Shown piece after piece: positions 4,285 through 60,989 of a DNA stretch of 64,000 nt; position 1 is the first letter of the stretch, and every line of letters begins with the position of its first letter. The stretch lies in assembly GCA_035509415.1 (NCBI GenBank), contig DATJLQ010000001.1, forward strand, positions 101-64,100. The letters are read 5' to 3'. The position numbers were made by a program, and so were the translations under genes. The notes under the pieces are model-generated. The model saw only the letters and a program-made list of their open reading frames with translations. It was not told where the DNA came from and did not search any database. Source of the DNA: Alphaproteobacteria bacterium. GTDB taxonomy: Bacteria > Pseudomonadota > Alphaproteobacteria > JACZXZ01.

Positions 4285-4548
4285 ATGATCCGGATGCGAC
4301 GGGCTTTGGGCGACTGGCGGCTCACGACCGCCGAAATCCTCTACCACCTGCCGGATTTCCCGGCCCTGCTCCAAACCTACATCTGGCAAGCGCCCGACAT
4401 GTCGCCCGACTTCCCGGCCTTGAAGCGCTTCCTCGATTTCTGGGAACGCAATCTCGAGGGCCGGCTCCATTCGGTGCGTATCGCGAGCGCGCGGCTCGTC
4501 GGCCCGCGCGAGCTGCGGTATGCGGGCGTCGAGCTCCGGCTCCACTGA
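4285..4548 (+). CDS. usg: Usg family protein
   Basis: 87 aa with the Usg-like signature LTTAEILYHLPDFPALLQTYIWQ...PDFPALKRFLDFWE...LHSV. Confidence 0.7.
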   Translation: MIRMRRALGDWRLTTAEILYHLPDFPALLQTYIWQAPDMSPDFPALKRFLDFWERNLEGRLHSVRIASARLVGPRELRYAGVELRLH

Positions 4549-4633
4549 AACGGCGCGATCGAAGCGCCGAGCCCCTTGCGGCCCGGCGCTTGGAGCGGCA
4601 CTCTCCCCGCCCCATGATTTTTCCGAACGCGCG

Positions 4634-5752
4634 ATGCCTTCGCTGATCACAGACTCGCCCGCAGCGCCGACGGCGCACGCTCCCGCGACCCTGCGACCGG
4701 ACGCGCGCGCCGGCGATCGGGCGCTCGCCCTGTGGCTCCTCGCCTGCTGCGGCATGATTTTCGTCATGGTGATTCTCGGCGGCGTCACGCGCCTCACGCT
4801 TTCGGGCCTCTCGATCACCCAATGGCAGCCCTTGATGGGCGTGATCCCGCCCCTCGATCACGCGGATTGGATGCGCGAGTTCGCGCATTACAAGGCGACC
4901 ACCCAGTATCAGGTCGTGAACGAGGGCATGAGCCTCGCCGACTTCAAATCGATCTTCTGGTGGGAATACACCCATCGTCTTTGGGGCCGGCTCATCGGCA
5001 TCGCCTTCCTGGTGCCGTTCCTCTATTTCCTCGCGCGCCGGCGCATCGCGCGCCCGCTCGTGCCGCGCCTCGCGATTCTGTTCGCGCTCGGCGCCCTCCA
5101 GGGTGCGGTCGGCTGGTACATGGTGATGAGCGGGCTCGAGGGCCGCACCTCGGTGAGCCAATACCGCCTCGCGGCCCATCTCGGCTTGGCGCTTTTGATC
5201 TACGCCTACATGCTGTGGCTGGCGCTCGACCTGCTTTGGCCGCGCGCGGATTCCTTGCCGCACGACGCCGCGCGCGGCGTCGCGCGATGGGGACGCGCGC
5301 TGGCCGCGTGGATTTACCTCGTGGCCCTCTCGGGCTCGTTCGTCGCGGGGCTCCATGCCGGGCTCATCTACAACACCTTCCCGCTCATGAACGGGCATTT
5401 GATCCCGCCCGGTCTTTATCCGCTCTCGCCCTGGTTCCGAAGCGCCTTCGACGACGTGATGACGGTGCAGTTCGACCACCGCATGCTCGCGATCGCGACC
5501 GTGCTGCTCGTGGTCGCGTTCCGTCTGGCGCTCGCGCGTCTCGAGCTATCGCCGCGCGCCCGGCTCGCGGCCAATCTCATGTGCGGATGGGTGTTCGTGC
5601 AGGTGGCCCTCGGCGTCTCGACTTTGCTGCTCGTGGTGCCGGTGGCGCTCGCCGCCTGCCATCAGGCGGGAGCGCTGGTCCTGTTCAGCCTCGCCATCCT
5701 CGCCGCGCATGAGCTCCCCTCCGCGCGGCGGCGCGGCGGCGCCGAAACCTAA
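4634..5752 (+). CDS. ctaA: Heme A synthase (COX15/CtaA type 2)
   Basis: Internal ATG (MPSLITD...) of the 410-aa ORF. Eight TM segments with conserved His pairs typical of COX15/CtaA. Confidence 0.85.
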   Translation: MPSLITDSPAAPTAHAPATLRPDARAGDRALALWLLACCGMIFVMVILGGVTRLTLSGLSITQWQPLMGVIPPLDHADWMREFAHYKATTQYQVVNEGMSLADFKSIFWWEYTHRLWGRLIGIAFLVPFLYFLARRRIARPLVPRLAILFALGALQGAVGWYMVMSGLEGRTSVSQYRLAAHLGLALLIYAYMLWLALDLLWPRADSLPHDAARGVARWGRALAAWIYLVALSGSFVAGLHAGLIYNTFPLMNGHLIPPGLYPLSPWFRSAFDDVMTVQFDHRMLAIATVLLVVAFRLALARLELSPRARLAANLMCGWVFVQVALGVSTLLLVVPVALAACHQAGALVLFSLAILAAHELPSARRRGGAET

Positions 5753-6294
5753 GCCGCGCAGGCCGGGCACAGGCCGATCGCCTCGACCACCACGTTGCGG
5801 ACCTGGAAGCCGAGCGCCTTCGCATCCGCGCCGATGGCACCCTGGATGCGCCGGTCGTGGAGCTCCGACGCCGCACCGCAACGCGCGCAGATGAGGAACT
5901 GGGTCGCATGGCCGTGCTCGGGGTCGGCGCAACCCAGATAGGCGTTGAGGGACTCGATGCGATGCACGAGCCCCTGCTCGGTCAGGAATTCGAGCGCGCG
6001 ATAGACCGTGGGCGGCGCCGCCGCGCGCCGCTCGCGCCGGAGCGCCGCCAGGATCGCGTAGGCGCCCACGGGATCGTGGCTGCGCCAGACGAGCTCGAGC
6101 ACGCGCCGGCGCAACGGCGTGAGCCGCGCGCCGCGTAGCGCGCACAGGCGCTCGGCCGTGCTCAATGCCGCCGCCTGGCAGCCCGAGTGATTGTGCCGCG
6201 TCTTGCCGAACGGGTCGGCCGTGAGCGCGCCGCGCGGCGTAGCGCCGTCGGCGGATGCCGCTCCTTTGCGCGCGACTCGGGAACTGGGCTTCAT
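5749..6294 (-). CDS. zur: Fur-family transcriptional regulator, Zur-like (zinc uptake regulator)
   Basis: 181 aa with a winged-helix N-terminus and C-terminal CxxC pairs (CARC, CPAC). A canonical Zur box is present elsewhere in the window (12901-12917). 3' end overlaps ctaA convergently by 4 nt. Confidence 0.65.
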   Translation of the reverse strand: MKPSSRVARKGAASADGATPRGALTADPFGKTRHNHSGCQAAALSTAERLCALRGARLTPLRRRVLELVWRSHDPVGAYAILAALRRERRAAAPPTVYRALEFLTEQGLVHRIESLNAYLGCADPEHGHATQFLICARCGAASELHDRRIQGAIGADAKALGFQVRNVVVEAIGLCPACAA

Positions 6295-6571
6295 CGTCCG
6301 AGATTACACGAAGCGCCGCGCGCCCGGAAGCCGCGCGGCGCGCGGGCGGCATTTGACGGCGCCGAGGGGCCGTGCTAGGTCGCACGCCGCCTGGCTCGCT
6401 TCCTCGAACATGCGCGCTGCGGAGCGAATTGGGCCGGGAGGGCATTCGAGTTCGGGTGCGGCGGATTTGCCGAAAAATTGATCGGCGCTCGACGCGCCCG
6501 TAACCACAGATTTGCCACTATTCCTGCTAATCTTCCCCCCTCTAAGTTGTCGTCCCAAAATGGAGAGTAGA

Positions 6572-6913
6572 ATGACGAAGTCGACGATCCGGCTCGCGAC
6601 CCTGGCCGCGGCCCTCATGCTCGGCGCCGCGACCGTGCTGCCGGGTGCGACCCCGGCTTTTGCCCAGACCACCCCGCCCGCCGCGACCGCGCCGGCGAAG
6701 CCCATGCACATGCACAAGCCCATGCACATGGCGCACGGCAGCGCCATGGTCAAGAAGGCGCAGGAGGCTCTCAACAAGGGCGGCGCCAAGCTCGCCGTCG
6801 ACGGCAAGTACGGGCCCAAGACCAAGGCCGCCATCATGGCGTTCCAGAAGGAGCACGGCCTCAAGGCCAACGGCCATCTGGACAAGGCGACCAAGAAGGC
6901 GCTCGGCGTCTAA
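6572..6913 (+). CDS. Exported small protein: signal peptide + Met/His-rich motif + peptidoglycan-binding (PG_binding_1-like) domain
   Basis: GGAGAG Shine-Dalgarno 4 nt before ATG 6572 (alternative ATG at 6560). Signal peptide MTKSTIRLATLAAALMLGAATVLPGATPAFA. Motif PMHMHKPMHMAHGSAM. C-terminus LAVDGKYGPKTKAAIMAFQKEHGLKANGHLDKATKKALG. Confidence 0.7.
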   Translation: MTKSTIRLATLAAALMLGAATVLPGATPAFAQTTPPAATAPAKPMHMHKPMHMAHGSAMVKKAQEALNKGGAKLAVDGKYGPKTKAAIMAFQKEHGLKANGHLDKATKKALGV

Positions 6914-6933
6914 GCGGCGCATTCCCATCGCAA

Positions 6934-6973
6934 CCGGGCCGTTGCGGGCGACCGCGGCGGCCCGTTTCTTTTT
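6934..6973 (+). terminator. Rho-independent terminator after the 6572..6913 gene
   Basis: CGGGCCG...CGGCCCG stem followed by TTTCTTTTT. Confidence 0.55.
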
Positions 6974-7059
6974 CCGCCTGCGCCCAAGTCTCTCGCGCCA
7001 CCTTTTTTCGCCACGTCCCGGCTAGGCGCATCATATCCCAAGGGCTAGATTGGGCGCCG

Positions 7060-7707
7060 ATGGACGGGGCCCGCGAGACGCGCGACGAGACGGTTGGCCG
7101 CCGCGCGCGCTTTCGCGCCGCGGGGCTCGGCGCGCTCGCCTGCGCCGCGGCGTTGCTCGCGAGCCTGCCGGCCGCGCGCGCCCATCCCCATGTCTGGATC
7201 GACAATTCGGTCGTGGTGCGGTTCGAGCACGCGAAGATCGCGGCCCTCGACGTGAGCTGGGTGTTCGACGAGTTCTACAGCGCCGACACGATCCAGGATT
7301 TCGACGAAGGCCACAAAGGGACCTTGGACCAAGCCGAGCTCGGCAAGCTCGCCGCGACCGGGGTCAAGTCGCTCAAGGGCTACAACTACTTCTCCTATCT
7401 CTATCTCGACGGCAAGAAGACGCCGGTCGCCTCGGTTACCCATTTCGCCGTCGGCCTCGAGAAGAATATCCTGGTCTACCGCTTCACCATCCCGGTGAGC
7501 CCGCCCATCGACCCCAAGGCGCGCAAATTCGCCTTCGCCATCTACGACGACAGCTATTTCGTCGACATCGAGCCGGCGAAGACGAATCCGGTGACCTTCG
7601 CGGGCGACGTGCCCAAGGGCTGCGCTGCCCGGGCGGCCGAGGACAAGAACGATCCCTATTATTTCGGCCAGGTCTATCCGCTCGTGGTCTCGGTGACCTG
7701 CCCATGA
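7060..7707 (+). CDS. DUF1007-family periplasmic protein (partner of NicO-type transporter)
   Basis: 215 aa with signal peptide and HPHVWID motif. ATGA overlap with the downstream NicO gene. Confidence 0.75.
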   Translation: MDGARETRDETVGRRARFRAAGLGALACAAALLASLPAARAHPHVWIDNSVVVRFEHAKIAALDVSWVFDEFYSADTIQDFDEGHKGTLDQAELGKLAATGVKSLKGYNYFSYLYLDGKKTPVASVTHFAVGLEKNILVYRFTIPVSPPIDPKARKFAFAIYDDSYFVDIEPAKTNPVTFAGDVPKGCAARAAEDKNDPYYFGQVYPLVVSVTCP

Positions 7708-8642
7708 GCCGCGTCGCGTCCCTCGTCACCGCGTTGCTCGCGGGGCTCCTCGCACTCGCCATCTGGGCGACCCTCGAGCGCACGCCGTGGCTCGAGGTCG
7801 GCTGGATGCACGAGCTGATGCGCGCCGTGTTCCTCGCCCAGCGCGAGCTCTACCGCGACATGGCGCAGGCGGTCGGCGATTACCGCGATCGTGCCGCGCG
7901 CGCGCCGCTTCTGTGGCTCATGGGTCTCTCGTTCGTTTACGGCGTGTTCCACGCGGTCGGCCCCGGCCACGGCAAGCTCGTGATCTCGTCCTACCTGGTC
8001 GCGCGCGGGAGCCGGATGCGGCGCGGGCTTTGGATCACCCTCGCCTCGGCGCTCGCCCAGGCCGCGAGTGCGGTGGCGCTGGTGGGCACCCTCGCGATCG
8101 GCCTCCACGTCACCGGGCGGCGCATCGAGGCCCAGACCCAGACTCTCGAGATCGCGAGCTACGCGCTCATCGTCCTGGTCGGATTCTGGATGCTCTACGG
8201 CGCGTTGCGCCGCGCGCAGCCCCATGCCCACGGACCCGCGCACAGCTTCGACCCGCTCGGCGTCGGCGACGAGACGCATTACCCGCCCGGCGCGGGCTTC
8301 CTCGCCTTCGCGCGGCGCCATCATGTCGCGGCCGTGGTGCTCGCGGTCGGCATCCGGCCCTGCAGCGGCGCGATCCTGGTGCTGCTCTTCACCCTCGGCC
8401 AGGGGATTTTCGCCGTCGGCATCGCGGCCGCCGTGGTGATGGCGCTCGGCACCGCGCTCACGGTCGCGAGCTTGGCGCTCTTCACCGTCGTCTCGCGTGC
8501 GGCCGCGGTGCGCCTCGCGCGCCGGAAGTCGCGTTGGGAGGGACTGCTCGAGCGCGCGCTCGAGCTCCTGGGCTCGCTCGCCGTGCTCGCGGGCGGCTCG
8601 CTCTTCCTGCTCGTGGCATTGCAACAGCCGGTCCCGCTCTGA
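7704..8642 (+). CDS. NicO/RcnA-family metal (Ni/Co/Zn-type) transporter membrane protein
   Basis: 312 aa, multi-TM, with the RcnA/NicO signature FHAVGPGHGK and a His-rich loop HAHGPAHSFD. Lies in frame within the fused 7050..8642 ORF. Confidence 0.8.
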   Translation: MSRVASLVTALLAGLLALAIWATLERTPWLEVGWMHELMRAVFLAQRELYRDMAQAVGDYRDRAARAPLLWLMGLSFVYGVFHAVGPGHGKLVISSYLVARGSRMRRGLWITLASALAQAASAVALVGTLAIGLHVTGRRIEAQTQTLEIASYALIVLVGFWMLYGALRRAQPHAHGPAHSFDPLGVGDETHYPPGAGFLAFARRHHVAAVVLAVGIRPCSGAILVLLFTLGQGIFAVGIAAAVVMALGTALTVASLALFTVVSRAAAVRLARRKSRWEGLLERALELLGSLAVLAGGSLFLLVALQQPVPL

Positions 8643-8667
8643 GGCGTCCCCGAATGCCGGGGTCGCC

Positions 8668-9375
8668 TTATCGCACCGAGATCGGGATGCGCAGATCGAG
8701 GGTGCTTGCGACCGGCCTGCCGCTCCGAATCGCGGGAAAGAAGCGCCAGCGCCGAAGCGCATCCAGCAATAAGCGATTGACGCGCGGCTCGGCCGTCGGC
8801 TCGATCAGCTCGACGGTCGCGCTGCCGTCGGGCTCGATGTGGAAGCGCGCGACCGCGATCCATTCGACGTTGCGGCGGCGGAGGTCGTCGGGCAGCTCGG
8901 GCATCGGCTTGAAGATCGCGCGCGGCGCGACACTGTCGCCGAACGATGGGTGCGCAGGGACCGGCGTCGAAGGCGCGCGGGGTGCCGGCTCCGTATTCGC
9001 GGGCGAAGCCGGAGCCGGAGATGGGCGAGGCGGCGTGGGTCTGGGCGGCGGCGGCGCCGGTTTGGGCACGGGCATGGGTGCCAGCAGGGGGGCTCGCTCC
9101 GGCTGGGGCGCCTCCTGTGGCGGCGGCGGTTCCAGCACGGGCGGTGGCGGCGTCGCCGCTCGAGGTGCGGGGGTCGGCGTCGGCGCCTCGACCGGGTGCA
9201 GTTCGACCAATTGCACCACGAGCGGCGCCGGGCGGGGTGTCGGAGGAGCCAGGACCAGGACGCTCAGAAATGCGCCGACCGCGGCCGACGTCGCGAGCAA
9301 GGCCGCCGGCAGGAGCCAATAGAGCCGCGGCCATGGATCGTCCCGAAACGTGGACCGCAGCGGGGCCTGGCGCAC
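8668..9375 (-). CDS. tonB: Energy transducer TonB
   Basis: N-terminal TM anchor, long Pro-rich spacer (PTPRPAPL...PPPPRPTPPRPSPAP) and C-terminal TonB domain. Confidence 0.85.
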   Translation of the reverse strand: MRQAPLRSTFRDDPWPRLYWLLPAALLATSAAVGAFLSVLVLAPPTPRPAPLVVQLVELHPVEAPTPTPAPRAATPPPPVLEPPPPQEAPQPERAPLLAPMPVPKPAPPPPRPTPPRPSPAPASPANTEPAPRAPSTPVPAHPSFGDSVAPRAIFKPMPELPDDLRRRNVEWIAVARFHIEPDGSATVELIEPTAEPRVNRLLLDALRRWRFFPAIRSGRPVASTLDLRIPISVR

Positions 9376-9387
9376 GGCGCCGCAAGC

Positions 9388-9789
9388 CTATTCCGGCTTG
9401 ATCGCGAACAGGAAATGCTCGACGCCCGCCGCGCGCGCCTTGAGCATCGCCTCGACCACGATGCCGTTCGGCGCGGCGCTGTCGGCATTGACCACGAGGC
9501 TCGTGGCACCGCCGGGTGCGAGGCGCATAAGCGTCGGTCCGATCGTCTCGAGCGTCACCGGCGTGCGGTCGAGTGCCAAATCGCCCGCGCGCGTGACCGT
9601 GAGCGTCACCGACGCTTTGGGCGGCGCCGCCAGCGCCTGTCCGCGCGGGAGGTCGACCGGAAGGGAGTGGAGGTTCTCGAGCGAGAGCGAGGCGAGCATG
9701 AAGGTCGCGAGCAAAAAGAACATCACATCGATCATCGGGATGATCTCGATGCGTCCCTTGCGCCGGGCGCGCGCCCTACGCAGCTTCAT
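9388..9789 (-). CDS. exbD: ExbD/TolR biopolymer transport protein
   Basis: 133 aa, IPMIDVMFFLL TM segment plus periplasmic domain. Confidence 0.9.
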   Translation of the reverse strand: MKLRRARARRKGRIEIIPMIDVMFFLLATFMLASLSLENLHSLPVDLPRGQALAAPPKASVTLTVTRAGDLALDRTPVTLETIGPTLMRLAPGGATSLVVNADSAAPNGIVVEAMLKARAAGVEHFLFAIKPE

Positions 9790-10414
9790 CGCCCGCTCCT
9801 TCCCGGTCCAGGCGCACGCGATCGATCATGCGGGTGCCCAAGCGCTCCATCTCGTCCATGATCCGGGCCTGGCGTTGGGAGAAGTAATTGAAGGCGAACA
9901 GCGCAATAAGCGCCACGAACAGGCCGAGCGCGGTCGCGATCAACGCCTCGGCGACGCCCCCGGTGACGCCCGCGGGATCGACCAGGCCCTGGCTGCCGAA
10001 CAGGCGGAATGCGCGGATCATGCCCGTGATGGTGCCGAGGAGCCCGAGCAAGGGTGCGGCGGTGACGATGGTCTCGAGCATCCAGAGCCAGCGCCCGAGC
10101 GATTTCTCGATCAGGCTCGCCTCGTCGCCCGCGCGCGATTCGAGCCACCAGGGCGGCTGGGCGCGGCCTGCGGCGAGCGTCGACAGGAAGGCGCCGAAAT
10201 AGTTGCGCGATCCGAGCGAGGCGAGCCCGCTCTCGAGCTCGGCCCACGAATACCGGTACGTCTCGATCAGCCCGCGCAGGGGTTCGGGCAGCCGCGTGCG
10301 CGCCCAGAAGACGAATCCCTTCTCAAGCACGATGATCGCGGCCAGGAGGGCGAGCGCCAGCAAGGGGTAGACCATCGCACCCCCGGCTTGAAGCGTCGCG
10401 AGAACGTTCTGCAT
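9776..10414 (-). CDS. exbB: ExbB (MotA/TolQ/ExbB proton channel)
   Basis: 212 aa with 3 TM segments and the conserved C-terminal MotA/TolQ region. Overlaps exbD by 14 nt. Confidence 0.9.
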   Translation of the reverse strand: MQNVLATLQAGGAMVYPLLALALLAAIIVLEKGFVFWARTRLPEPLRGLIETYRYSWAELESGLASLGSRNYFGAFLSTLAAGRAQPPWWLESRAGDEASLIEKSLGRWLWMLETIVTAAPLLGLLGTITGMIRAFRLFGSQGLVDPAGVTGGVAEALIATALGLFVALIALFAFNYFSQRQARIMDEMERLGTRMIDRVRLDREGAGDEAA

Positions 10415-10470
10415 GCAAGCTCCGTTAGTCGCCGATCCCGATCCCGACCCCGATTCGTGTCGCCGCTCGG

Positions 10471-12867
10471 CTAGAATTCCTTGGTGATGCCGGCGAAGAA
10501 GGCGCGCCGAGGTCCGTACTGGGGCGCGAACACGCCGACGCCGGTGCCGCTACGGATTTGATAGGTCCGGTCGAACAGGTTGATGACGGTGAATTTGATC
10601 TCGAACGTGCCGAAGCTCTCGGTTGCGATCTTGTCCGAGGCGCCGACGTTCATCTGCCAATAGGGCGTCACGGTCGCGCCATTGGGCGTGTCGCCGTCCT
10701 CGCGCAGGCCGCTGCCGTAGAGCAAATCCGAGCTGAACCGGACCCCGTGCCATTTGTAGGCGGCGCCGCTCGAGGCGGTGATGAACTGGTCGTGGTCGAG
10801 CGGGATGAAGTGGGTCTGGATGTAGGCGAGATCGGACGCGGAGAAATTATACTGTCCCGAGACGATGTCCTTGCCCACCGCGTGGGAGAACGCGACGTTG
10901 CCGTAGGCCGAGAAATCGCCCTGGGTGTAGTTGGTCGTGAGCTCGACGCCGTATTGCCGCCCTTCGCGATAGTTGAACGGCGTGAGGATGACCGGCGCGC
11001 CGAACTGGCCCTCGTCGATCAAGTCGTGGGATTTCTTGAAGTAGGAATCGATGCCGGCGTCTAGGCCCGGCAGGATCTTCTGGGTGACGCCGCCATCGAA
11101 GTAGTGGGAGCGCTCGGCCTTGATCGACGAATCCTCCGTCACCTCGGGTGCTGCCGAAGTGTTGGCGAAGCTCGCCACGCTGGCGGCCGAGAACAGCTCG
11201 AAGGGCGGGGGCGTGAAGTAGCGCGCGTAGCCGACATGAAGCGTGGTCGCATCGATCGGCCGCCACACCACGTTGATGCGCGGGCTCAACTGATCGGCAT
11301 GGGTCACCGTGTCCACGCGGTCGGCGCGCCCGCCGTAATTGATCGTGAGGCGCGGGAACAGCCGCCATTCGTCCTGGAGATAGATGCTCTCGGTCCAGCC
11401 GGTCTTGCCTTCCTCGTCGAAGATGCTCTCGGGCGCGGTGCCGATCTGATTGCCGTTCGCGTCGGTCGGCACCACCGACGAGATCGTCTTCGAGATGCTG
11501 CGCTCGCCGGTCAGGAGGAAGCCGGAGCGCAAGGTATGGTCGTCGGCGATCCGGTAGCTGCCGTCGGTCTGGATGCCGCTCGCCTGGTCCTGGCGGTAGG
11601 CTTGCTGGGCGATGCCGTTATAGAGGAGATCGCCGACCTCGTCGGGAACGAAGTTCAGGCTGCTGTAACGGGTGAAGAAGGCGGTCTGGACGTCGACTTT
11701 GTCCCACGATTTCTGCAGCGCTGCGATGCCGAATTGCGTGATCTCGCGCTGGTTCTCGTCGAGCTGCGAGGAATCGAAGGTGGTCTGGCCGTTGACGTTC
11801 CATCCGAGGCTCGGCATCTGGCCCGGCGTGTTGGGAATCTCGAACTGGCTGCGCTCGGTGCCGAGCATCGCGCTGATGCGGCTGGTCGGATCGAGGATCG
11901 CCGAGAAATAGGCGAAGCCGTGGCCCTGCTCCGATTGGTCGTGAAGCGGGTTCGCGCCCGGCGTCGGCGATTCGATGCCGAGATCGTTCTGGAGATAGTC
12001 GCCCGTGACGTAGTAGTCGACCCGGCCGTAGGAGCCGCCATATTCGGCGCTCGGATGCAACGTCGAGCGGCTGCCGCCTTCCATGCTTACGCTGCCGCCC
12101 GGCTCGAACGCGCCGCTCTTGGTCCGGATGTCGATGATGCCGGCCGTGTCGAGGCCGTATTCGGCCGGCAAGGCGCCGGTGACGAGCTGGACCTGGTCGG
12201 CGAAGCGCGCGCTCAGCGCCTGGCCGAACACGCTCATCCCCTCGGGCAGGATGAAGCCGTTGATGCGGTACTGGAGCGCATTGTGCTCGCCCCGGATATG
12301 GAGCTGGCCGAAGGAATCCATGGCGACGCCGGGCGCTTGCAGCACGATCTGGTCCAAGGGATTGTCGGCGCCGAGCGGCTCCGCCGAAATCGCCTCCCGC
12401 GAGATCGTGTAGGTCGAAGCGCCGATCTGCGGCTCGATCCCCGCGCGCGCCTCGTCGAGGCGCTTTTCGGTGACGGCCAGATCGAGCGCTTGCTGCGCCG
12501 ACAGCACGAGCTCCACGCTTGCGACGCCGGAAGCGCTCACGGTCACGATCGTCGTCGCGGGCTCGAAGCCGGCCTTGCTGCCGACGACCGAGAGCACGCC
12601 GGGGGCGATACCGGAGACGCGGGCGGAGCCCTCCGGATCGGTCGCGGCGCGGCCCACGACCGCGCCGTCCGCCGATTGCACCTCGGTCTCGACGCCCGCA
12701 AGCGGCCGCCCGAGCGAATCCCGAGCCTCGATCTGGATCGCGCCGGTGGACCCCGGGCCGGCCGAGGCCCCGGGCGCCGCGCCGACAAGCCCCGCCGCCA
12801 AAAACACACACGCCGCGATCGTCCGCACCATCGGCATCGCGGCCACGCTCCCGCTCGTCGCTTTCAT
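10471..12867 (-). CDS. TonB-dependent outer-membrane receptor with N-terminal carboxypeptidase-regulatory-like extension (Zur-regulated, ZnuD-like candidate)
   Basis: 798 aa with signal peptide, an extra N-terminal beta-sandwich-like domain before the plug, a 22-strand barrel and C-terminal ...AGITKEF. GGGGGAG Shine-Dalgarno. Zur box 34 bp upstream. Confidence 0.9.
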   Translation of the reverse strand: MKATSGSVAAMPMVRTIAACVFLAAGLVGAAPGASAGPGSTGAIQIEARDSLGRPLAGVETEVQSADGAVVGRAATDPEGSARVSGIAPGVLSVVGSKAGFEPATTIVTVSASGVASVELVLSAQQALDLAVTEKRLDEARAGIEPQIGASTYTISREAISAEPLGADNPLDQIVLQAPGVAMDSFGQLHIRGEHNALQYRINGFILPEGMSVFGQALSARFADQVQLVTGALPAEYGLDTAGIIDIRTKSGAFEPGGSVSMEGGSRSTLHPSAEYGGSYGRVDYYVTGDYLQNDLGIESPTPGANPLHDQSEQGHGFAYFSAILDPTSRISAMLGTERSQFEIPNTPGQMPSLGWNVNGQTTFDSSQLDENQREITQFGIAALQKSWDKVDVQTAFFTRYSSLNFVPDEVGDLLYNGIAQQAYRQDQASGIQTDGSYRIADDHTLRSGFLLTGERSISKTISSVVPTDANGNQIGTAPESIFDEEGKTGWTESIYLQDEWRLFPRLTINYGGRADRVDTVTHADQLSPRINVVWRPIDATTLHVGYARYFTPPPFELFSAASVASFANTSAAPEVTEDSSIKAERSHYFDGGVTQKILPGLDAGIDSYFKKSHDLIDEGQFGAPVILTPFNYREGRQYGVELTTNYTQGDFSAYGNVAFSHAVGKDIVSGQYNFSASDLAYIQTHFIPLDHDQFITASSGAAYKWHGVRFSSDLLYGSGLREDGDTPNGATVTPYWQMNVGASDKIATESFGTFEIKFTVINLFDRTYQIRSGTGVGVFAPQYGPRRAFFAGITKEF

Positions 12868-12900
12868 GATCTCCCCCGGAAGGAATGCCCAACGACCGGG

Positions 12901-12917
12901 ATGTTATAGTATAACAT
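12901..12917. promoter_or_regulatory. Zur box (perfect 8-1-8 palindrome ATGTTATAgTATAACAT)
   Basis: Exact match to the widely conserved Zur operator ATGTTATAnTATAACAT. Lies between the divergent TBDR operon and the znuA-like operon. Confidence 0.8.
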
Positions 12918-12936
12918 TTTGCATCGGCAAGAGCTT

Positions 12937-12953
12937 TGTTATATTATTACACA
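12937..12953. promoter_or_regulatory. Possible second, degenerate Zur box
   Basis: TTGTTATATTATTACAC matches 14/17 of the Zur-box consensus. About 70 bp upstream of the znuA-like ATG. Confidence 0.4.
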
Positions 12954-13023
12954 TCAAGTCGCGCGCGCCGCTCGGAGGCGAGCGCACGGCACCAAACTTA
13001 TCGGCGTCCACAGGAGGGGCACG

Positions 13024-13935
13024 ATGCGACATTTCATCTTCGCAGCACTGGCCGGCGCGGTTATGATCGTCTCGACCGCGGTCGTCACGACGGCCGCGGC
13101 GCAGCCGGTCAACGCCGTCGGCGTGGAAAACGAATATGCCGACGTGATCGAGCAGATCGGCGGCAGTTATGTTAAGGTGAGCGCGATCGAAACCGATCCC
13201 AACACCGATCCGCACACCTTCGAGGCAAGCCCCAAGGTCGCGACCCAGATTTCGTCGGCTCAATTGATCGTCGAGAACGGCCTCGGCTACGATTCCTGGG
13301 CGGACAAGATCATCGCCGCGGCGCCCAACGCCAACCGCAAGGTGATCGTCGTCCAGCAATTGCTCGGTCTCCCCGACAGCACGCCGAACCCCCATTTGTG
13401 GTACGATCCGAAAGCGATGCCGGCCGTGGCGCAGGCAGTGGCGCAGGCCCTCGCAGCCCAACGGCCGGCGCAAGCGGCCTACTTCAAATCCAACGCGGAC
13501 AAATTCGTGGCATCGCTCAAGCCTTGGATGGCGGCCATCGCTTCGTTCAAGGCGGCGTACGGGCATACGCCGGTCGCGGTCACCGAGCCGGTTGCCGACT
13601 ACATGCTCGAAGCCATCGGCTGCGACATCCTGACGCCCTTCACGCTCCAGGCGGCGATCATGAACGGAACCGACCCCTCGCCCCAGGACGTGACCACGCA
13701 GAACGCCCTTTTCAACGAACACAAGGTCAAGGTCTTCGTCTATAATCAGCAGGTCACGGACACGCTGACCCAGGCGTTCCTCAACCTCGCCAAGAAGAAC
13801 GGCATACCCGTCGTCGGCGTCTACGAGACGATGCCGACCCCCGGCTACAACTACCAATCCTGGATGCTTGCGGAGGTCGTCGCCCTGCGCAAGGCGGTGA
13901 CCCTCAAAGCATCCACCGAGACGCTGATCAAGTGA
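13024..13935 (+). CDS. Metal ABC transporter substrate-binding protein (ZnuA/TroA/AztC cluster-9 family)
   Basis: Internal ATG (MRHFIFAALAGAVMIVS...) preceded by AGGAGG. Signal peptide and TroA-like fold motifs. No long His-rich loop. The six-frame ORF begins at a TTG at 12919 that overlaps the Zur box. Confidence 0.85.
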   Translation: MRHFIFAALAGAVMIVSTAVVTTAAAQPVNAVGVENEYADVIEQIGGSYVKVSAIETDPNTDPHTFEASPKVATQISSAQLIVENGLGYDSWADKIIAAAPNANRKVIVVQQLLGLPDSTPNPHLWYDPKAMPAVAQAVAQALAAQRPAQAAYFKSNADKFVASLKPWMAAIASFKAAYGHTPVAVTEPVADYMLEAIGCDILTPFTLQAAIMNGTDPSPQDVTTQNALFNEHKVKVFVYNQQVTDTLTQAFLNLAKKNGIPVVGVYETMPTPGYNYQSWMLAEVVALRKAVTLKASTETLIK

Positions 13936-14771
13936 AACCGGCAATCCTACATGATGGAGGCGAGATCCTCGCCGTCGACCGGGTGGGGGTCTCGCTCTCG
14001 GGGCGACAAATCCTCCAGGATGTGAGCTTCAAGTTAAGGCCCGGCGAGTTCTGCGGTCTGATCGGCATGAATGGCTCGGGCAAGACCACGCTCCTGCGCG
14101 CCATTCTCGGCTTTCTGACTCTGAGCGCGGGCAAAGTCAGGATCGACGGTCGCGGCGACGGCCCGGTCTCGGTCGGCTACGTTCCCCAGAAGATCTCGTT
14201 CGATTCCCACGTACCGCTGCGCGCGCGCGATCTGGTCGCGCTCGGCCTCGACGGTCATCGGCTCGGCATCCCGCTCCCCTCGAAGGCGCGCCGACGGCTG
14301 GTCGATGAGGCATTGCAGGAGGTGAACGCGGAGAGCTTCGCCGACCGTCGAGTCGGCAATCTCTCCGGCGGCGAGCAGCAACGGGTGCTGATCGCGCATG
14401 CCTTGATTCGCCGTCCGCGCCTGCTGTTGCTGGACGAGCCGCTCGCCAATCTCGACATTCGGGGTGTCGCCGAAATCGTCGCGGTCCTGCGCCGCCTATC
14501 CGTGGAGCACAAGATCGCGGTGCTGCTTTCCGCCCACGACATGAATCCGCTGCTCCCGGTCATGGATCGCATCGTGTATTTGGCCAGCGGCCGTGCGGCG
14601 AGCGGCCGGACGGACGAGGTCGTGCGAACCGAGGTGCTCAGCAAGCTCTACGGCTACCATATCGACGTCGTCCGCGTGCATGGCCGGGTCCTGGTGATCG
14701 CCGCCGGGGGCGCCGACGACATCCTCACGGCGGTCGCGGAAAATCCCGCGCACGTCGCCCAGATTCCGTGA
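13932..14771 (+). CDS. Metal ABC transporter ATP-binding protein (ZnuC-like)
   Basis: Walker A GMNGSGKTT, ABC signature LSGGEQQR, Walker B LLLLDEP. GTGA overlap with the SBP gene. Confidence 0.9.
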   Translation: MKPAILHDGGEILAVDRVGVSLSGRQILQDVSFKLRPGEFCGLIGMNGSGKTTLLRAILGFLTLSAGKVRIDGRGDGPVSVGYVPQKISFDSHVPLRARDLVALGLDGHRLGIPLPSKARRRLVDEALQEVNAESFADRRVGNLSGGEQQRVLIAHALIRRPRLLLLDEPLANLDIRGVAEIVAVLRRLSVEHKIAVLLSAHDMNPLLPVMDRIVYLASGRAASGRTDEVVRTEVLSKLYGYHIDVVRVHGRVLVIAAGGADDILTAVAENPAHVAQIP

Positions 14772-14777
14772 TCGGCC

Positions 14778-15689
14778 ATGAAATTCCTGCTCACGATGAT
14801 CTTCGCCCCAGGCTTCCTCACGAGCGAGCCCGTGCAAACCGCGATGATCGTCGGAGGCGGCGCCGCGCTCGTGTCGGGCGTGGTCGGCGTATTCGCGGTC
14901 ATGAGGGGTCAGTCCTTCGCCGGCCACGCGCTCGCCGACGTGACCAGCGCCGGCGGCGCGGCCTCGTTCCTCCTTGGCATCAATCCGCTGCTCGGATTCT
15001 TGTGCATGGCCGTGCTTGCCGCCGGAGGAATGGAGGCGGCCGGGGTTCGTCGCATCCGAGAGCGCGACCTCGTGACCGGCATCGTCCTGGGCGCAGGGCT
15101 CGGCGTTACCGCGCTGTTCTTGTACTTGGACGTCACCTTGGGGAGCACCACCGGAGCGGCAAACATGGTGATGTTCGGCTCGATGTTCGCCATCCCCGCC
15201 GAGACAATCCCGCTCGCCCTCGGAGTCGGCCTATGCGCGCTGGCGTCGGTCGCCGTCCTCTACCGCCCGTTGCTTCTGAGCTCGCTCAATCCGGAACTCG
15301 CCGAGGCCCGGGGGCTGCCGCTTCGGCTGATCGGATTCCTCCAGTTGCTGGCATTGGCCCTGGCCGTGTCGCTCTCCGCGATGACGATCGGCGCCATTCT
15401 GTCCACAGCGTTGTTGATCGGGCCGGCTGCGACGGCCTTGCGCGTGGCGCGGCGGCCTGGCTGGGCAATCGTGATCGCCGCCCTGGTCGGCCTCGGCGCC
15501 ACTTGGGGCGGGATTCTTCTCGCCTATGACAGTTTCTATTGGACGCCCGGGCACGGCTGGCCCGTGAGCTTCTTCGTCGTCACGCTCGTTTTCCTGGCCT
15601 ACCTGCTCGCGAGCCTCTCCGGGAGAAGGGGCGAACGGACGCGGGACGCGCCGAGCCACTCGGCACCCGGCGCGATGGGCAAGGCCTGA
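14778..15689 (+). CDS. Metal ABC transporter permease (ZnuB/TroC-like)
   Basis: 303 aa, 8-9 TM segments, ABC-3 family. Confidence 0.9.
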   Translation: MKFLLTMIFAPGFLTSEPVQTAMIVGGGAALVSGVVGVFAVMRGQSFAGHALADVTSAGGAASFLLGINPLLGFLCMAVLAAGGMEAAGVRRIRERDLVTGIVLGAGLGVTALFLYLDVTLGSTTGAANMVMFGSMFAIPAETIPLALGVGLCALASVAVLYRPLLLSSLNPELAEARGLPLRLIGFLQLLALALAVSLSAMTIGAILSTALLIGPAATALRVARRPGWAIVIAALVGLGATWGGILLAYDSFYWTPGHGWPVSFFVVTLVFLAYLLASLSGRRGERTRDAPSHSAPGAMGKA

Positions 15690-15691
15690 CC

Positions 15692-16513
15692 ATGTTCTCG
15701 GGCTTCATGATCAACACTTGGGTCGTGGCGAGCATCGTTGCGGCCGTTGCCGGCTGCGTCGGCTTCTTTGTGGTCATCCGGGGTTCCGCGTTCGCCGCTC
15801 ATGCATTGCCGCTCGGCGCCTTCCCCGGCGCAGCGGCGGCGAGCTTCATCGGCGTCAATCAATTCTTCGGGCTGATCGTGTTCGCCGGTCTCGGGATCGT
15901 CGGAATTCTCCAGCTCGGCCGCCGGGGACGGCCCGATGTCGCGACGGCACTTTCCCTGGTGACGCTCCTCGGGCTGGGAACGCTGTTCCTGAGCATGACC
16001 CGGGAATATTCTCAGGAAGTCTACGCCCTTCTCTTCGGGCAGGTCCTCGGCATCGGCGCCAAGGACTTCGCGCCGGTCGCGGCGGTGGGCGCGATCTCGG
16101 TCGCGGCCATCGTGACGCTGTTCCGGCCCCTCCTGCTCAACTCCCTATCGCCCGAGCTGGGGAATGCCAGGGGAGTGTCGGACCGCCGCTCGGAGCTCTG
16201 CTTTTTGATTATTCTGGCGCTCGCCACGACCGTGACGCTCCCGGTGGTGGGCGCACTCCTCGTTTTCAGCCTGATGGTCGGCCCGGCTTCCGCCGCGCGT
16301 TTCTTTACCGATCGGCCGCTCCACGCAATGCTCATCTCCATGGGCGTGGCGCTGGTCACTATGTGGTCTGCGATCGCCCTCTCTTACGTCTCGAACTGGC
16401 CCATAGGCTTTTTCGTCGGAAGCATGAGTGCCGTTTGCTACGGCGTCGGGCGAACCTGGGCCTGGGTCAGATTGAGCAAGCGGCAAGCGACGTTAGCGGC
16501 CGATCTGTCGTAA
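15692..16513 (+). CDS. Metal ABC transporter permease, second subunit (TroD-like)
   Basis: Internal ATG (MFSGFMINTWVVASIVAAV...) 3 nt after the previous stop. ABC-3 family, paralogous to the preceding permease. Confidence 0.85.
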   Translation: MFSGFMINTWVVASIVAAVAGCVGFFVVIRGSAFAAHALPLGAFPGAAAASFIGVNQFFGLIVFAGLGIVGILQLGRRGRPDVATALSLVTLLGLGTLFLSMTREYSQEVYALLFGQVLGIGAKDFAPVAAVGAISVAAIVTLFRPLLLNSLSPELGNARGVSDRRSELCFLIILALATTVTLPVVGALLVFSLMVGPASAARFFTDRPLHAMLISMGVALVTMWSAIALSYVSNWPIGFFVGSMSAVCYGVGRTWAWVRLSKRQATLAADLS

Positions 16514-16569
16514 ATCGAGGAAAGCGCCCGTCTAAAGACGCATGCCCGCGTCCACGCCGACGCTCGCCC

Positions 16570-17931
16570 TCACACCACCTTGGTCGCCGGCTTGCCTTGG
16601 AGATTTTCCTCCTCGGCGTAGGTGCGGCTCATGATCACGATCGCGACGCAGGCGAGCGCCAGCGGCAGCCCGCCCAGGAGGAAGATCGAGGCGGTCGGCC
16701 ATTTGAGCGAGATCAGGAACGCGGCCACGAGCGGCCCGACGATCGCACCCACGCGCCCGATGCCGAGGCACCAGCCGACCCCGGTCGAGCGCATCGCGGT
16801 CGGATAGAAGATGGCCGAGAGCGCGTTGGCGCAGTTCTGGCCGCCGATCACGCAGAAGCCGGCGCCGAAGGTGAGCAGCATCAGGACCGGCACGTCGGTG
16901 CCCGCGTGGCCGAGCACGATCACGAACACGCAGCCGAGCCCGAACATGAGCGGCAGCACGCGGAACGCGCCGTAGCGGTCCATCGGCATGCCGATAAGGA
17001 AGCTCGCGACGATGCCGCCGATCTGGAACAGCGTGCCGATGATGACCGCGGTCTGGACCGGCACGCCGGCGCCCGTGGTGATCGCGGGAATCCAGTTCTG
17101 CAGGAAGAAGAGATCGAGCAAATTCATGAAGAAGATGATCCACAGCAGGACCGTGCCGGCGCCGCGCGCGTTGCGGAACAGGTGTGCCACGGGCACGCCC
17201 GTGATGTTCGTCTCGCCGATGGTGAAGCGCGCGTCGGCGGCGAGCGCCAGGCGGGGATCGATGCGGCGCACGAGGGAGGCGATGCGCTCGCGCGCGGCGT
17301 TGGTCACCATGAGGAAGCGGATCGATTCCGGCAGTGCCGCGAATTGGAGCGGCAGCGTGATGAGCGGCAGGATTCCCCCCACGTACCAGACCACGCGCCA
17401 GCCATGCGTCGGGATCGCGTGGGCCGCGATGGCGCCCGCGGCGGCGGCGCCGAACGAGAAGCCGGTGAACATGATCATCACGAGGGTCGCGCGCCGGCGC
17501 TCGGGGCAATATTCGGCGGTGAGCGCGATGCAGTTGGGCATCGCCCCGCCGAGCCCGAAGCCGGTCAGGAGCCGGTAGATCAGGAGCTGGGTCAAATTGT
17601 CGGATGTCGCCGTGAGCAGCGTGAAGACGCCGAAGATCGCGGTGCAGATCAGGATCACCTTGCGCCGGCCGATCTTGTCGGCGACCACGCCGAACAGAAG
17701 CGCCCCCACGAGGAGACCCACCAGGCTCGCGGTGAAGACCGGCCCGAGGGTGAACTTGTCGAGGTGCCATTCCTTCGCGATCGACGGGGCGACGAAGGCG
17801 ATCGACTGGGCGTCGTACCCGTCGAGGAGCACGGTGAAGCCGCAGATGAGCACCACCCAAAGCTGGAAGCGCCCGAGCTTGCGCTCGTTGATGAAAGACG
17901 GAATGTCGATGACCGCGCCGTCGGCCGCCAT
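16570..17931 (-). CDS. MFS transporter, aromatic acid:H+ symporter (AAHS) family
   Basis: 454 aa from internal ATG (MAADGAVIDIPSF...), 12 TM segments, MFS motifs GRRKV and DRYG. Resembles PcaK/MhpT-type hydroxybenzoate transporters. Confidence 0.8.
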   Translation of the reverse strand: MAADGAVIDIPSFINERKLGRFQLWVVLICGFTVLLDGYDAQSIAFVAPSIAKEWHLDKFTLGPVFTASLVGLLVGALLFGVVADKIGRRKVILICTAIFGVFTLLTATSDNLTQLLIYRLLTGFGLGGAMPNCIALTAEYCPERRRATLVMIMFTGFSFGAAAAGAIAAHAIPTHGWRVVWYVGGILPLITLPLQFAALPESIRFLMVTNAARERIASLVRRIDPRLALAADARFTIGETNITGVPVAHLFRNARGAGTVLLWIIFFMNLLDLFFLQNWIPAITTGAGVPVQTAVIIGTLFQIGGIVASFLIGMPMDRYGAFRVLPLMFGLGCVFVIVLGHAGTDVPVLMLLTFGAGFCVIGGQNCANALSAIFYPTAMRSTGVGWCLGIGRVGAIVGPLVAAFLISLKWPTASIFLLGGLPLALACVAIVIMSRTYAEEENLQGKPATKVV

Positions 17932-41519: not shown

Positions 41520-42818
41520 ATGACGATCACGCCCTTCGAGGTCTGCGTCGGCACCATCGTCGGCCTGGGCATCCTCGGCCTCCCGATCGGCCATTCGATG
41601 ATCGCCGCCTCGATCCTCTACCTGTTCCTCGCCCATCTCGATCCGGGCACCGCGGCCGAGCAGATCCTGAACGGCATCAACGACAGCTACGTGCTGATCG
41701 CGGTGCCGTTGTTCATCGTCGCGGCCGACATCATGAACGCCGGCAGCCTGACCGACCGGCTGCTCAATTTCTGCCTCGCCCTGGTCGGCCGGTTCCGCGG
41801 CGGCCTCGGCCACGTGAACGTCGTGGCCAACGTGATTTTCGCCGGCATGTCGGGCTCGGCGATCGCGGACGCGGTCGGCATCGGCCGCATCATCATCGGC
41901 ATGATGACCAAGGAGAACCGCTACCCCGCCGCGTATGCGGGCGCCATTACCGCCGCCTCCGCCGTGATCGGGCCGATCATCCCGCCCTCGATCCCGATGG
42001 TGGTTTACGCGCTCATCTCGGACGCCTCGATCGGCTACCTCTTCCTCGGCGGCGTGGTGCCCGGCCTGCTCTTGGGCGTCGCCTACATGGTGACCAACGC
42101 CGTCATCTCCCGCCGCCGGCGCTATCCCGTCGAGGCGCCGGTGCCGCTGCGCGAATTCCCCAAGATCACGATGCGCGCGTTCCCCGCGCTGATGCTGCCG
42201 GTGATCCTGCTGTTCGGCATCTATGGCGGGGTCACGACGCCGACCGAGGGTGCCGCGCTCGCCGCCGCCTACGCGCTCTTCGCCTCGACCGTGATCTACC
42301 GCGCGGTCACTTGGAAGCAGCTCTACGCCGCGTTCCTCACGAGCTTCAAGTCGGCCTCCTCGGTCGGCATCCTGATCGCCGGCGCCCTCGCCTTCAATTA
42401 CGTCGTAACGATCGAGAACGTGCCGACCGGGCTCCAGCATTTCATGAGCGGCTTCCATCTCTCGGCCTGGGGCTTCCTGCTGCTGGTGAACATCCTGCTC
42501 CTGATTCTCGGCTGCCTGCTCGAGGGCACCACCATCCTGCTCGTCATCGTTCCGATCTTCATTCCGACCGCGAAGTCGCTCGGCATCGATCTCGTCTATT
42601 TCGGCGTCGTGGTCGTGGTCAACATCATGATCGGCCTGGTGACGCCGCCCTACGGCCTGCTGCTGTTCGTCATCGCCAACATGACCAAAGAGCCGCTGGC
42701 CAAGATCGTGCGCGAGGCAGCACCCTTCATCGTCGCGGCGGTCGTGGTCCTGATCCTGATCACGGCCGTACCCGACCTGGTGCTCTGGCTGCCGCGCGAA
42801 ATCGGCTACAAGGGATAG
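41520..42818 (+). CDS. TRAP transporter large permease (DctM family)
   Basis: 432 aa, 12+ TM, DctM motifs. Confidence 0.92.
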   Translation: MTITPFEVCVGTIVGLGILGLPIGHSMIAASILYLFLAHLDPGTAAEQILNGINDSYVLIAVPLFIVAADIMNAGSLTDRLLNFCLALVGRFRGGLGHVNVVANVIFAGMSGSAIADAVGIGRIIIGMMTKENRYPAAYAGAITAASAVIGPIIPPSIPMVVYALISDASIGYLFLGGVVPGLLLGVAYMVTNAVISRRRRYPVEAPVPLREFPKITMRAFPALMLPVILLFGIYGGVTTPTEGAALAAAYALFASTVIYRAVTWKQLYAAFLTSFKSASSVGILIAGALAFNYVVTIENVPTGLQHFMSGFHLSAWGFLLLVNILLLILGCLLEGTTILLVIVPIFIPTAKSLGIDLVYFGVVVVVNIMIGLVTPPYGLLLFVIANMTKEPLAKIVREAAPFIVAAVVVLILITAVPDLVLWLPREIGYKG

Positions 42819-60517: not shown

Positions 60518-60554
60518 AGTTGTCAGTTGTCAGTTCTCAGCTATCAGTCGTCAG
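60518..60554 (+). repeat. Left array of 5 tandem heptamers (TTGTCAG-like), inverted relative to the right array
   Basis: TTGTCAG TTGTCAG TTCTCAG CTATCAG TCGTCAG, immediately after the yejE stop. Confidence 0.6.
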
Positions 60555-60567
60555 ACTGGAGCCGGCC

Positions 60568-60933
60568 ATGCAGAACTTTCGGGATCTCAGAGTTTGGCGC
60601 AAGGCACATGACGTGGCGCTTTCCGTCTACAAAATGTCCGACGGCTTCCCGTCCGCTGAACGTTATGGCATCACCAGCCAAATGCGGCGCGCCGCTTTCT
60701 CGGTGCCATCGAATATCGCAGAAGGTTGTGGCAGATCGAGCGGTGCCGACTTTGCCCGATTTCTCGACATCGCCTTCGGGTCGGCCAGCGAGCTCGAATA
60801 CCTGCTCCTCCTCGCCGTCGACCTGGGCATTCTCGAATCTGCGACATATGACGCTATGCTCGCCGAGCTGCAGGAGGTCAAGCGCATGCTGACCGCGCTG
60901 ATTGGCCGCGTGAGGTCAGGCACTGAGAACTGA
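60568..60933 (+). CDS. Four-helix-bundle protein (23S rRNA intervening-sequence / IVS protein family)
   Basis: 121 aa MQNFRDLRVWRKAHDVALSVYKMSDGFPSAERYGITSQMRRAAFSVPSNIAEGCGR..., the hallmark of the PF05635/TIGR02436 family. Nested between yejE and yejF. Confidence 0.8.
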   Translation: MQNFRDLRVWRKAHDVALSVYKMSDGFPSAERYGITSQMRRAAFSVPSNIAEGCGRSSGADFARFLDIAFGSASELEYLLLLAVDLGILESATYDAMLAELQEVKRMLTALIGRVRSGTEN

Positions 60934-60978
60934 GAACTGACGACTGAGAACTGACAACTCACAACTGAGAACTGACAA
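60923..60978 (+). repeat. Right array of 8 tandem heptamers (CTGAVAA), reverse complement of the left array
   Basis: CTGAGAA CTGAGAA CTGACGA CTGAGAA CTGACAA CTCACAA CTGAGAA CTGACAA. Overlaps the last 4 codons of the IVS gene and ends 11 nt before the yejF ATG. Confidence 0.6.
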
Positions 60979-60989
60979 CCAACCCCGCC

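Follow-up and report, generated by a model that had tools for sequence, protein, structure and literature searches.

In the alphaproteobacterium Caulobacter crescentus, a receptor gene (znuK) and an ATP-binding cassette (ABC) importer operon (znuGHI) are transcribed divergently from one intergenic region, in which a box with the core GTTA-N5-TAAC, recognised by the zinc-responsive repressor Zur, lies over the -10 element; binding of the box was established by electrophoretic mobility shift assay (EMSA) and repression by lacZ fusions (PMC4176598). Here, we describe a related arrangement in a 64-kb stretch of DNA from a soil alphaproteobacterium, hereafter denoted the window. The 156-nucleotide (nt) region at 12868-13023 of the window separates a leftward operon, encoding a TonB-dependent receptor and an ExbB-ExbD-TonB energiser, from a rightward operon encoding an ABC importer with a periplasmic metal-binding protein, and is predicted, with a probability that we put at roughly 0.8, to be a zinc-repressed bidirectional control region. 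The Caulobacter divergon differs from that of the window in having one box and no exbB-exbD-tonB behind znuK, and in that znuGHI is of the ABC-2 type and lacks a ZnuA-like binding protein (PMC4176598).

Other described systems share further parts of the arrangement. The znuA/zur-znuCB divergon of Acinetobacter baumannii is repressed in both directions through a single Zur box, and the TonB-dependent receptors znuD1/2 and a dedicated tonB1-exbB1-exbD1 set likewise have Zur boxes and are induced by N,N,N′,N′-tetrakis(2-pyridylmethyl)ethylenediamine (TPEN) (PMC3516566). In that organism the energiser and the receptors form separate units, whereas the window has one receptor-exbB-exbD-tonB operon; the A. 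baumannii importer is also, unlike that of the window, a canonical ZnuABC, and its receptors are ZnuD homologues (PMC3516566). The znuA/znuCB operator of Escherichia coli (4MTD; PMC6103462) has a core, TGTTATAnTATAACA, nearly identical to the box of the window, and the E. coli 23-mer operator occurs in the window with 3 mismatches. The E. coli znu system, however, has no outer-membrane component and only one permease gene.

In gene order, and in a Glu at the third ligand position of the binding protein, the importer resembles the cluster A-I importers Sit, Yfe and Tro. Sit and Yfe are Fur/MntR-controlled manganese/iron systems, whereas the window cassette has Zur-type operators instead; the Tro system of Agrobacterium tumefaciens is Zur-regulated (PMC6103462). 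The window binding protein departs from these relatives in its fourth ligand, probably Glu268 rather than Asp, and has no more than distant relatives among solved proteins. Finally, the Bordetella pertussis operon BP3077-BP3082 (PMC9858536) combines a receptor, a NicO-family permease, a DUF1007 protein and a Sit-like ABC transporter, and BP3077 is a zinc-repressed ZnuD homologue (PMC8610307). Unlike the window locus, it is a single operon with another gene order and a ZnuD-type receptor, and no exbBD-tonB has been reported for it.

Receptor and ABC genes that share a divergent promoter region, promoters with more than one box and TonB systems under Zur are therefore already documented, and the locus is predicted to represent ordinary regulation acting on uncharacterised transporter families. 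Our understanding of Zur regulation itself is left unchanged. If the reading is correct, its value lies in assigning to Zur and zinc limitation two abundant, uncharacterised transport families of soil bacteria, at present labelled 'Zn/Mn binding protein' and 'Fe receptor' in databases, and in illustrating that a Mn/Fe-like guess from ligand residues or operon layout can clash with regulatory evidence for zinc.

Organisation of the locus and the two boxes

The locus was mapped from open reading frames (ORFs) supported by third-position G+C content (GC3), and from Pfam/NCBIfam scans. The map confirms the layout proposed in an initial annotation of the stretch: a receptor-exbB-exbD-tonB operon divergent from a binding-protein/ATPase/two-permease operon. 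The features of the two operons, of the region between them and of the presumed regulator are as follows.

12901-12917, no strand: putative Zur box 1 (palindrome, motif scans, upstream-region alignment)
12936-12952, no strand: putative Zur box 2 (motif scans; similarly placed second box in loci L033, L082 and L090)
10471-12867, minus strand: TonB-dependent receptor with signal peptide, CarboxypepD_reg domain (residues 49-122), plug, barrel and C-terminal Phe
9776-10414, minus strand: ExbB (PF01618, 2e-27)
9388-9789, minus strand: ExbD, with a 14-nt overlap with exbB
8668-9375, minus strand: TonB, with an N-terminal membrane segment, a long Pro-rich spacer and a TonB_C domain
13024-13935, plus strand: periplasmic cluster A-I metal-binding protein (Pfam ZnuA)
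13932-14771, plus strand: ABC ATPase
14778-15689, plus strand: ABC-3 permease 1
15692-16513, plus strand: ABC-3 permease 2 (start from the public gene call in L081)
5749-6294, minus strand: Zur-type Fur-family regulator with two CxxC pairs, presumed cognate repressor (PF01475, NCBIfam, PDB search)

The stretch lies on a metagenome contig (L081, ENA ERZ27256608), and the same DNA is also present in a Joint Genome Institute (JGI) metagenome (L086). The type of its CtaA and the nearest homologues of its receptor indicate an uncultured alphaproteobacterium as the host.

Box 1 (ATGTTATAgTATAACAT / ATGTTATAGTATAACAT) is a perfect 8-1-8 palindrome with the core GTTA-N5-TAAC, in a window whose G+C content is 67.5%. 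It starts 34 nt upstream of the minus-strand ATG of the receptor (12867), and 107 nt separate its end from the plus-strand ATG of the binding protein (13024). In a public gene call (P0121), the receptor begins 10 codons further in, at 12837, which gives a protein of 788 rather than 798 amino acids and leaves box 1 64 nt, not 34 nt, upstream. Box 2 (TTGTTATATTATTACAC) is a degenerate version of box 1, from which it differs at 3 positions, and its core is GTTA-N5-TTAC. Direct reading of the sequence confirmed the palindrome and both ATG distances (34 and about 107 bp) as first annotated; the degenerate second site, which had been placed at 12937-12953, exists but lies one base lower.

When every 17-mer of the window is compared with box 1, the mismatches number 0, 3, 5 and then at least 6. 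In 100 dinucleotide-preserving shuffles there were 0 matches at three or fewer mismatches, against the 2 observed, and base-composition arithmetic by hand gives about 3e-7 exact matches to box 1 expected per window. A chance AT-rich palindrome is rejected by the shuffles and by the absence of other 17-mers with fewer than 5 mismatches; a chance origin of the boxes is excluded. Box 1 is the only perfect GTTA-N5-TAAC core in the 64-kb window, box 2 having 1 core mismatch, and the remaining 1-mismatch core matches, at 42397 and 60662, both fall within coding sequence. No further Zur box with fewer than 5 mismatches to box 1 was found in the window.

Motif identity

The core GTTA-N5-TAAC is validated for Caulobacter Zur, boxes such as GATGTTATATCATAACAAT having been confirmed by EMSA and lacZ fusions (PMC4176598), and box 1 has 3/19 mismatches to this znuK/znuG box. 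It agrees with the gamma-proteobacterial 19-mer consensus AATGTTATAWTATAACATT (PMC3516566) at 17/19 positions, or with 1 mismatch if the central W is scanned as N, and the published E. coli Zur pattern TRWNAYRWTATAWYRTNWCA (PMC6103462) matches box 1 and box 2 and nowhere else in the window. The Caulobacter core and the 17/19 agreement support the original identification of the 17-mer as a canonical Zur operator. Four other identities were considered for the site, namely the Fur, Irr, Mur and actinobacterial Zur consensus sequences, and all fit the intergenic region poorly: the best Fur-box match has 8/19 mismatches, and the Irr consensus and the Mur consensus have 6/14 mismatches each. By motif, box 1 falls within the definition of a proteobacterial Zur operator, and it is conserved upstream of orthologues.

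Conservation upstream of homologues of each operon

A genome scan with the binding protein returned 80 loci at 61-81% identity, 55 proteobacterial and 25 actinobacterial, which span Burkholderiaceae, Acetobacteraceae, Rhizobiales, Acidithiobacillus and many Actinomycetota. The four-gene cassette is kept in about 70 of the 80, and about 25 have a zur homologue within their flanks. Upstream of nearly every proteobacterial copy, a Zur-type palindrome is the most AT-rich spot, and when orthologous upstream regions are aligned box 1 is the sole conserved block. GTTA-N5-TAAC (one mismatch at most) has a density of 1.71/kb over the 400 nt that precede the proteobacterial cassettes versus 0.065/kb elsewhere, and TGTTATAACA, at the same tolerance, one of 1.16/kb versus 0.010/kb, so that the motif is enriched 26- to 115-fold upstream of importer homologues; 35/55 proteobacterial loci have such a GTTA-N5-TAAC site upstream. 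Fewer loci were recovered when the degenerate core GYTA-N5-TARC had to match exactly than when 1 mismatch was allowed. The actinobacterial loci have TGAAAATGATTTTCA-like sites instead (15/25; 1.5/kb upstream versus 0.025/kb), and TGAAAATGATTTTCA is the footprinted Zur consensus of Streptomyces coelicolor (PMC2823685). The importer family, which numbers at least 8,000 scored relatives, is thus found in Proteobacteria and Actinomycetota with the local Zur-type operator in each phylum, and on this comparative evidence the importer arm is associated with Zur-type boxes in other genomes independently of the receptor arm.

One acetobacterial locus (L033) has, ahead of the same importer cassette, a 17-mer identical to box 1 and, 38 nt from it, a second box; a -35 element lies between the two, as in the window. 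At this locus (8149-9642 and 9776-9830), the divergent gene encodes an OprB-family porin, not a TonB-dependent receptor. A box variant, GCTA-N5-TAGC, was seen in some Acetobacteraceae and other proteobacterial loci (L001, L002, L006, L034 and L038), in one of which (L038) a tandem pair at 2396-2435 precedes a receptor-zur-importer operon; the variant suggests lineage-specific drift of Zur half-site recognition. At 100-310 nt before the binding-protein gene, cassettes of Solirubrobacterales and Acidimicrobiales (L048-L051, L056, L057, L061 and L074) have another palindrome, AAGACTCAGTCTT / GAGACTCAGTCTC, which resembles neither Zur consensus.

Homologues of the receptor number in the thousands and are generically annotated as iron receptors, the nearest being from Stellaceae and Aliidongia. 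Receptor loci were collected by per-protein context lookups, a metagenome scan with the receptor having given 3 loci. A Zur-type box lies directly upstream in 10/11 of the loci examined (L082, which has two, L084/L085, L087, L088, L089, L090, L013, L034 and L038). The receptor is followed by exbB-exbD in seven loci (L082-L085 and L088-L090), the ExbB proteins being 69-74% identical to that of the window, and a recognisable tonB is present in L082-L084 and L090; because these genes follow the receptor across loci, receptor and private energiser form a conserved module. L090 has the module joined to a DUF1007-NicO pair and a ZnuA-type ABC system, and boxes stand before the receptor gene and before znuA. 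As with the importer, comparison of these loci associates the receptor arm with Zur-type boxes in other genomes, independently of the other arm.

A small ORF precedes the receptor module in L083 (7428-7865), L088 (5500-5919) and L089 (5512-5919), with a weak DUF2946 match in L083 and L088 and no Pfam match in L089. A Zur-type box lies upstream of the small ORF in L088 and L089; L083 has no box there, and has a divergent cation diffusion facilitator (CDF) efflux gene.

Predicted promoters and proposed mode of repression

A two-hexamer sigma-70 scan of 5600-16800 gave intergenic matches only at 12918-12945/12947 (TTTGCA-16/18-TATATT/TATTAT), and a third match, at 13039-13067, that lies inside the binding-protein gene. 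The predicted plus-strand promoter at 12918..12945 consists of a -35 element TTTGCA, a 16-nt spacer and an extended -10 element TGtTATATT; given the extended (TG) -10 of this match, box 2 would cover the plus-strand -10 and box 1 would abut the -35. On the minus strand, box 1 contains a candidate extended -10, TGtTATACT (12908..12916, 33-41 nt before the receptor ATG; read by eye), which we infer to be the -10 of the receptor operon. By promoter scan and sequence reading, the predicted promoters overlap both boxes, each of which embeds an extended -10-like TGnTATAnT, on opposite strands. A terminator scan found no credible minus-strand terminator between the receptor, exbB, exbD and tonB genes. 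A riboswitch or structured leader in the importer 5′ untranslated region of about 70 nt was considered and rejected, there being no Rfam matches in the window and a fold z-score of only -1.44.

Zur operators overlap the -10 elements of znuK, znuL and znuGHI in Caulobacter (PMC4176598), and promoters with two Zur boxes are on record (PMC6103462). In view of these precedents and of the overlap of box and -10, steric repression of both divergent promoters by zinc-loaded Zur is the likeliest mechanism. With sufficient zinc, Zur (most likely the 5749-6294 product) would bind two operators, on box 1 covering the minus-strand extended -10 and abutting the plus-strand -35, and on box 2 covering the plus-strand extended -10 TGtTATATT, such that RNA polymerase would be blocked in both directions. 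When zinc drops, Zur would leave the DNA and both operons would be transcribed, the leftward one supplying the outer-membrane TonB-dependent receptor with its private ExbB-ExbD-TonB energiser and the rightward one the binding protein, ATPase and two permeases of the ABC importer.

The locus had initially been annotated as a single zinc-repressed bidirectional region. Comparison supports the bidirectional Zur control; in place of one shared operator there are probably two, one over the -10 of each promoter. Whether the two also divide the work, box 1 acting mainly on the receptor operon through its overlap with the -10 and box 2 mainly on the importer operon, possibly at different zinc thresholds, we consider close to an even bet, though slightly the less favoured side of it. 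Such a division, which would refine rather than contradict bidirectional zinc control, fits the extended -10-like element that each box has on its own strand, the plus-strand promoter match that puts box 2 over the -10 and box 1 just outside the -35, and the same layout in L033; non-adjacent homologues of each operon also have boxes of their own, and two-box promoters have precedent (PMC6103462). Against it, box 1, abutting the plus-strand -35, probably hinders the importer promoter too, box 2 is degenerate (3 mismatches), and the Caulobacter and Acinetobacter divergons each control both directions with one box (PMC4176598, PMC3516566).

The presumed regulator

The best PDB relatives of the 181-residue protein encoded at 5749-6294 are the Zur proteins of Xanthomonas campestris (7dh7, 1e-34) and E. 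coli (4mtd, 3e-30), which bears out the earlier description of a Zur-like Fur-family regulator with two CxxC pairs; PerR, Fur and Nur in the PDB score about 1e-6 to 1e-4, and among NCBIfam models that for Zur is by far the best. The 4mtd alignment shows that the protein keeps Y45, R65, H77, C88, H96, C103, C106, E111, C143 and C146 of E. coli Zur. All residues of the structural Cys4 site, formed by the two CxxC pairs, and of the sensing site, His77, Cys88, His96 and Glu111 (E. coli Zur numbering; roles after Gilston 2014 and PMC6103462), are conserved in this alignment. The window regulator therefore retains every metal ligand of E. coli Zur, together with Tyr45 and Arg65, the two base-contacting residues (PMC6103462). 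It differs at Asp49, which forms the dimer-of-dimers salt bridge in E. coli Zur and is Ala here; it cannot therefore be taken for granted that two dimers bind one box cooperatively. Judged from these similarities, the 5749-6294 product is most likely the cognate repressor of both boxes.

Transporter identity and the case for zinc

Several observations weigh against zinc control through this regulator or against zinc as the cargo. The regulator scores 127.6 bits, below the NCBIfam Zur equivalog cut-off of 167, and the cognate role may fall to other Fur paralogues elsewhere in the genome. A mismatch scan of the window detected no box for zur or for the nearby DUF1007-NicO pair, the minus-strand promoter was not reported by the two-hexamer scan, and one of the 11 receptor-homologue loci (L083) is without a box. 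The host organism is known from metagenome assemblies alone. On the side of the transporters, the sequence and family alignment of the binding protein show neither the three-His zinc site nor the His-rich loop of ZnuA; where AztC and FpvC have a His as third ligand, it has Glu188 in the alignment, and its operon is laid out like those of Sit and Yfe, which import Mn/Fe. The receptor does not specifically resemble ZnuD, its only PDB match being the colicin I receptor (8e-6) with the solved ZnuD absent, and there are no obvious His-rich loops in its sequence.

The family-invariant residues of the binding protein are His64, His124, Glu188 and Glu268, the last at the expected position of the fourth ligand. 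Its best PDB match (E 3e-17) covers the N-terminal lobe only, and its top NCBIfam match is the Deinococcus MntC model, tied with AztC. The AlphaFold model (mean predicted local distance difference test, pLDDT, 85.6) has as its top PDB neighbours in Foldseek exclusively cluster A-I proteins, which include Mn-, Fe- and Zn-binding members, such that Zn and Mn are not separated. With a ZnuA-fold binding protein, ABC-3 permeases and an ATPase in one operon, the system is a cluster A-I importer. A ZnuABC in the strict sense is ruled out by the two permease genes, by the lack of a three-His site and His-rich loop, and by equivalog scores below the cut-offs (ZnuA 25.9 versus 268, ZnuB 62-82 versus 284, ZnuC 131 versus 306). 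The label 'ZnuA-type' first given to the importer consequently holds at the Pfam level and fails for the ligand set and for the layout, which is that of Sit/Yfe/Tro. The receptor, with plug and barrel and followed by exbB-exbD-tonB in a conserved module, is a receptor with a dedicated energiser; it is not assigned to the ZnuD type, in the absence of specific ZnuD similarity and visible His-rich loops.

As the importer is not a strict ZnuABC and the receptor is not ZnuD-like, metal specificity rests on regulation and not on protein features. Binding of the boxes by Zur, the placement of the promoters, the repression of the two arms and the choice of zinc as cargo metal are put forward as predictions from sequence comparison. 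Zinc control is supported by this comparison, every testable part of it having held. More tentatively, and with the odds somewhat against so full a description, the island at 5749-16513 may constitute an uncharacterised uptake route for zinc starvation, made up of a receptor family with a CarboxypepD_reg domain and its private ExbB-ExbD-TonB, a DUF1007/NicO pair leading from periplasm to cytoplasm, and a very widespread, non-ZnuA importer that has a His2-Glu2 site and two dissimilar permeases.

It is unlikely, though a serious alternative, that the switch is Zur-dependent and the cargo is something other than free Zn2+, such as a metallophore-zinc complex taken up by the receptor, or Co/Ni, with the ABC system or DUF1007/NicO handling the cargo. 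The receptor, unlike ZnuD and without His-rich loops, would suit such a role, and NicO-family and HupE/UreJ genes co-occur with the receptor module. Cluster A-I binding proteins, however, bind bare ions, and no metallophore biosynthesis genes were seen in the scanned parts of the window. The literature has yet to settle in what form zinc passes through Zur-regulated receptors (PMC10563805, PMC6103462), but the Bordetella receptor BP3077, the first gene of a comparable TonB-dependent receptor/NicO/DUF1007/ABC operon, is zinc-repressed (PMC8610307, PMC9858536).

A good deal less probable still is that the palindrome is an operator of the Fur, Mur, Nur or DtxR/MntR type and the ABC system a Sit/Yfe-type Mn/Fe importer. 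The binding protein-ATPase-permease-permease order of Sit/Yfe/Tro, the invariant Glu188 at the third ligand position as in Mn/Fe binding proteins, the MntC match tied with AztC and structural neighbours that bind Mn as well as Zn are all compatible with it. The mismatches to the Fur (8/19), Irr and Mur (6/14) consensus sequences argue the other way, as do the identity of the motif with the validated Zur core (PMC4176598), the zur rather than fur or mntR homologues that neighbour the cassette in about 25 loci, the phylum-appropriate Zur operator of the cassette in Actinomycetota, and the precedent of Zur-regulated Tro-type importers in Agrobacterium (PMC6103462). That the palindrome is a product of chance in AT-rich sequence, or a simple promoter element without a regulator of its own, could appeal to the relatively AT-rich intergenic regions of high-G+C genomes, but is effectively refuted by the comparative data, the motif being 26- to 115-fold enriched upstream of homologues and the sole conserved block in otherwise diverged upstream regions, and by the shuffles with 0 matches and the lack of any other window 17-mer with fewer than 5 mismatches.

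Neighbouring genes and other observations

Four further genes lie close to the two operons.

4520-5752, plus strand: CtaA
6575-6913, plus strand: small peptidoglycan (PG)-binding protein, with a strong terminator after the gene (6935-6964)
7060-7707, plus strand: DUF1007 periplasmic protein, with no Zur box of its own here
7704-8642, plus strand: NicO-family permease, with no Zur box of its own here

The DUF1007-NicO pair stands beside the receptor-exbBD-tonB module in the window (7060-8642), in L084 (6911-8265) and in L090 (5253-5900, 10197-11739), where it belongs to the same operon, downstream of a Zur box. The NicO-family permease has the motif HAVGPGHGK, and the pair is a possible extra inner-membrane route.

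The small secreted protein encoded at 6575-6913 (PG_binding_1), whose gene is divergent from zur, contains a His/Met-rich stretch, MHMHKPMHMAHG, and may be a periplasmic metal-binding protein; the mismatch scan of the window detected no box upstream of its gene. No COG0523 gene, no ribosomal-protein paralogue and no further zinc-sparing gene was found in the scanned rest of the window, which encodes general metabolism.

Far from the island, a PF05635 23S rRNA-intervening-sequence protein gene (134 bits; 60568-60933) lies between the permease and ATPase genes of an oligopeptide ABC system. Heptamer arrays in inverted orientation lie on either side of it, (AGTTGTC)x5.3 at 60518-60554 and (ACTGACA)x8.3 at 60922-60979, and the segment 60518-60979 looks like a small cassette-like insertion.

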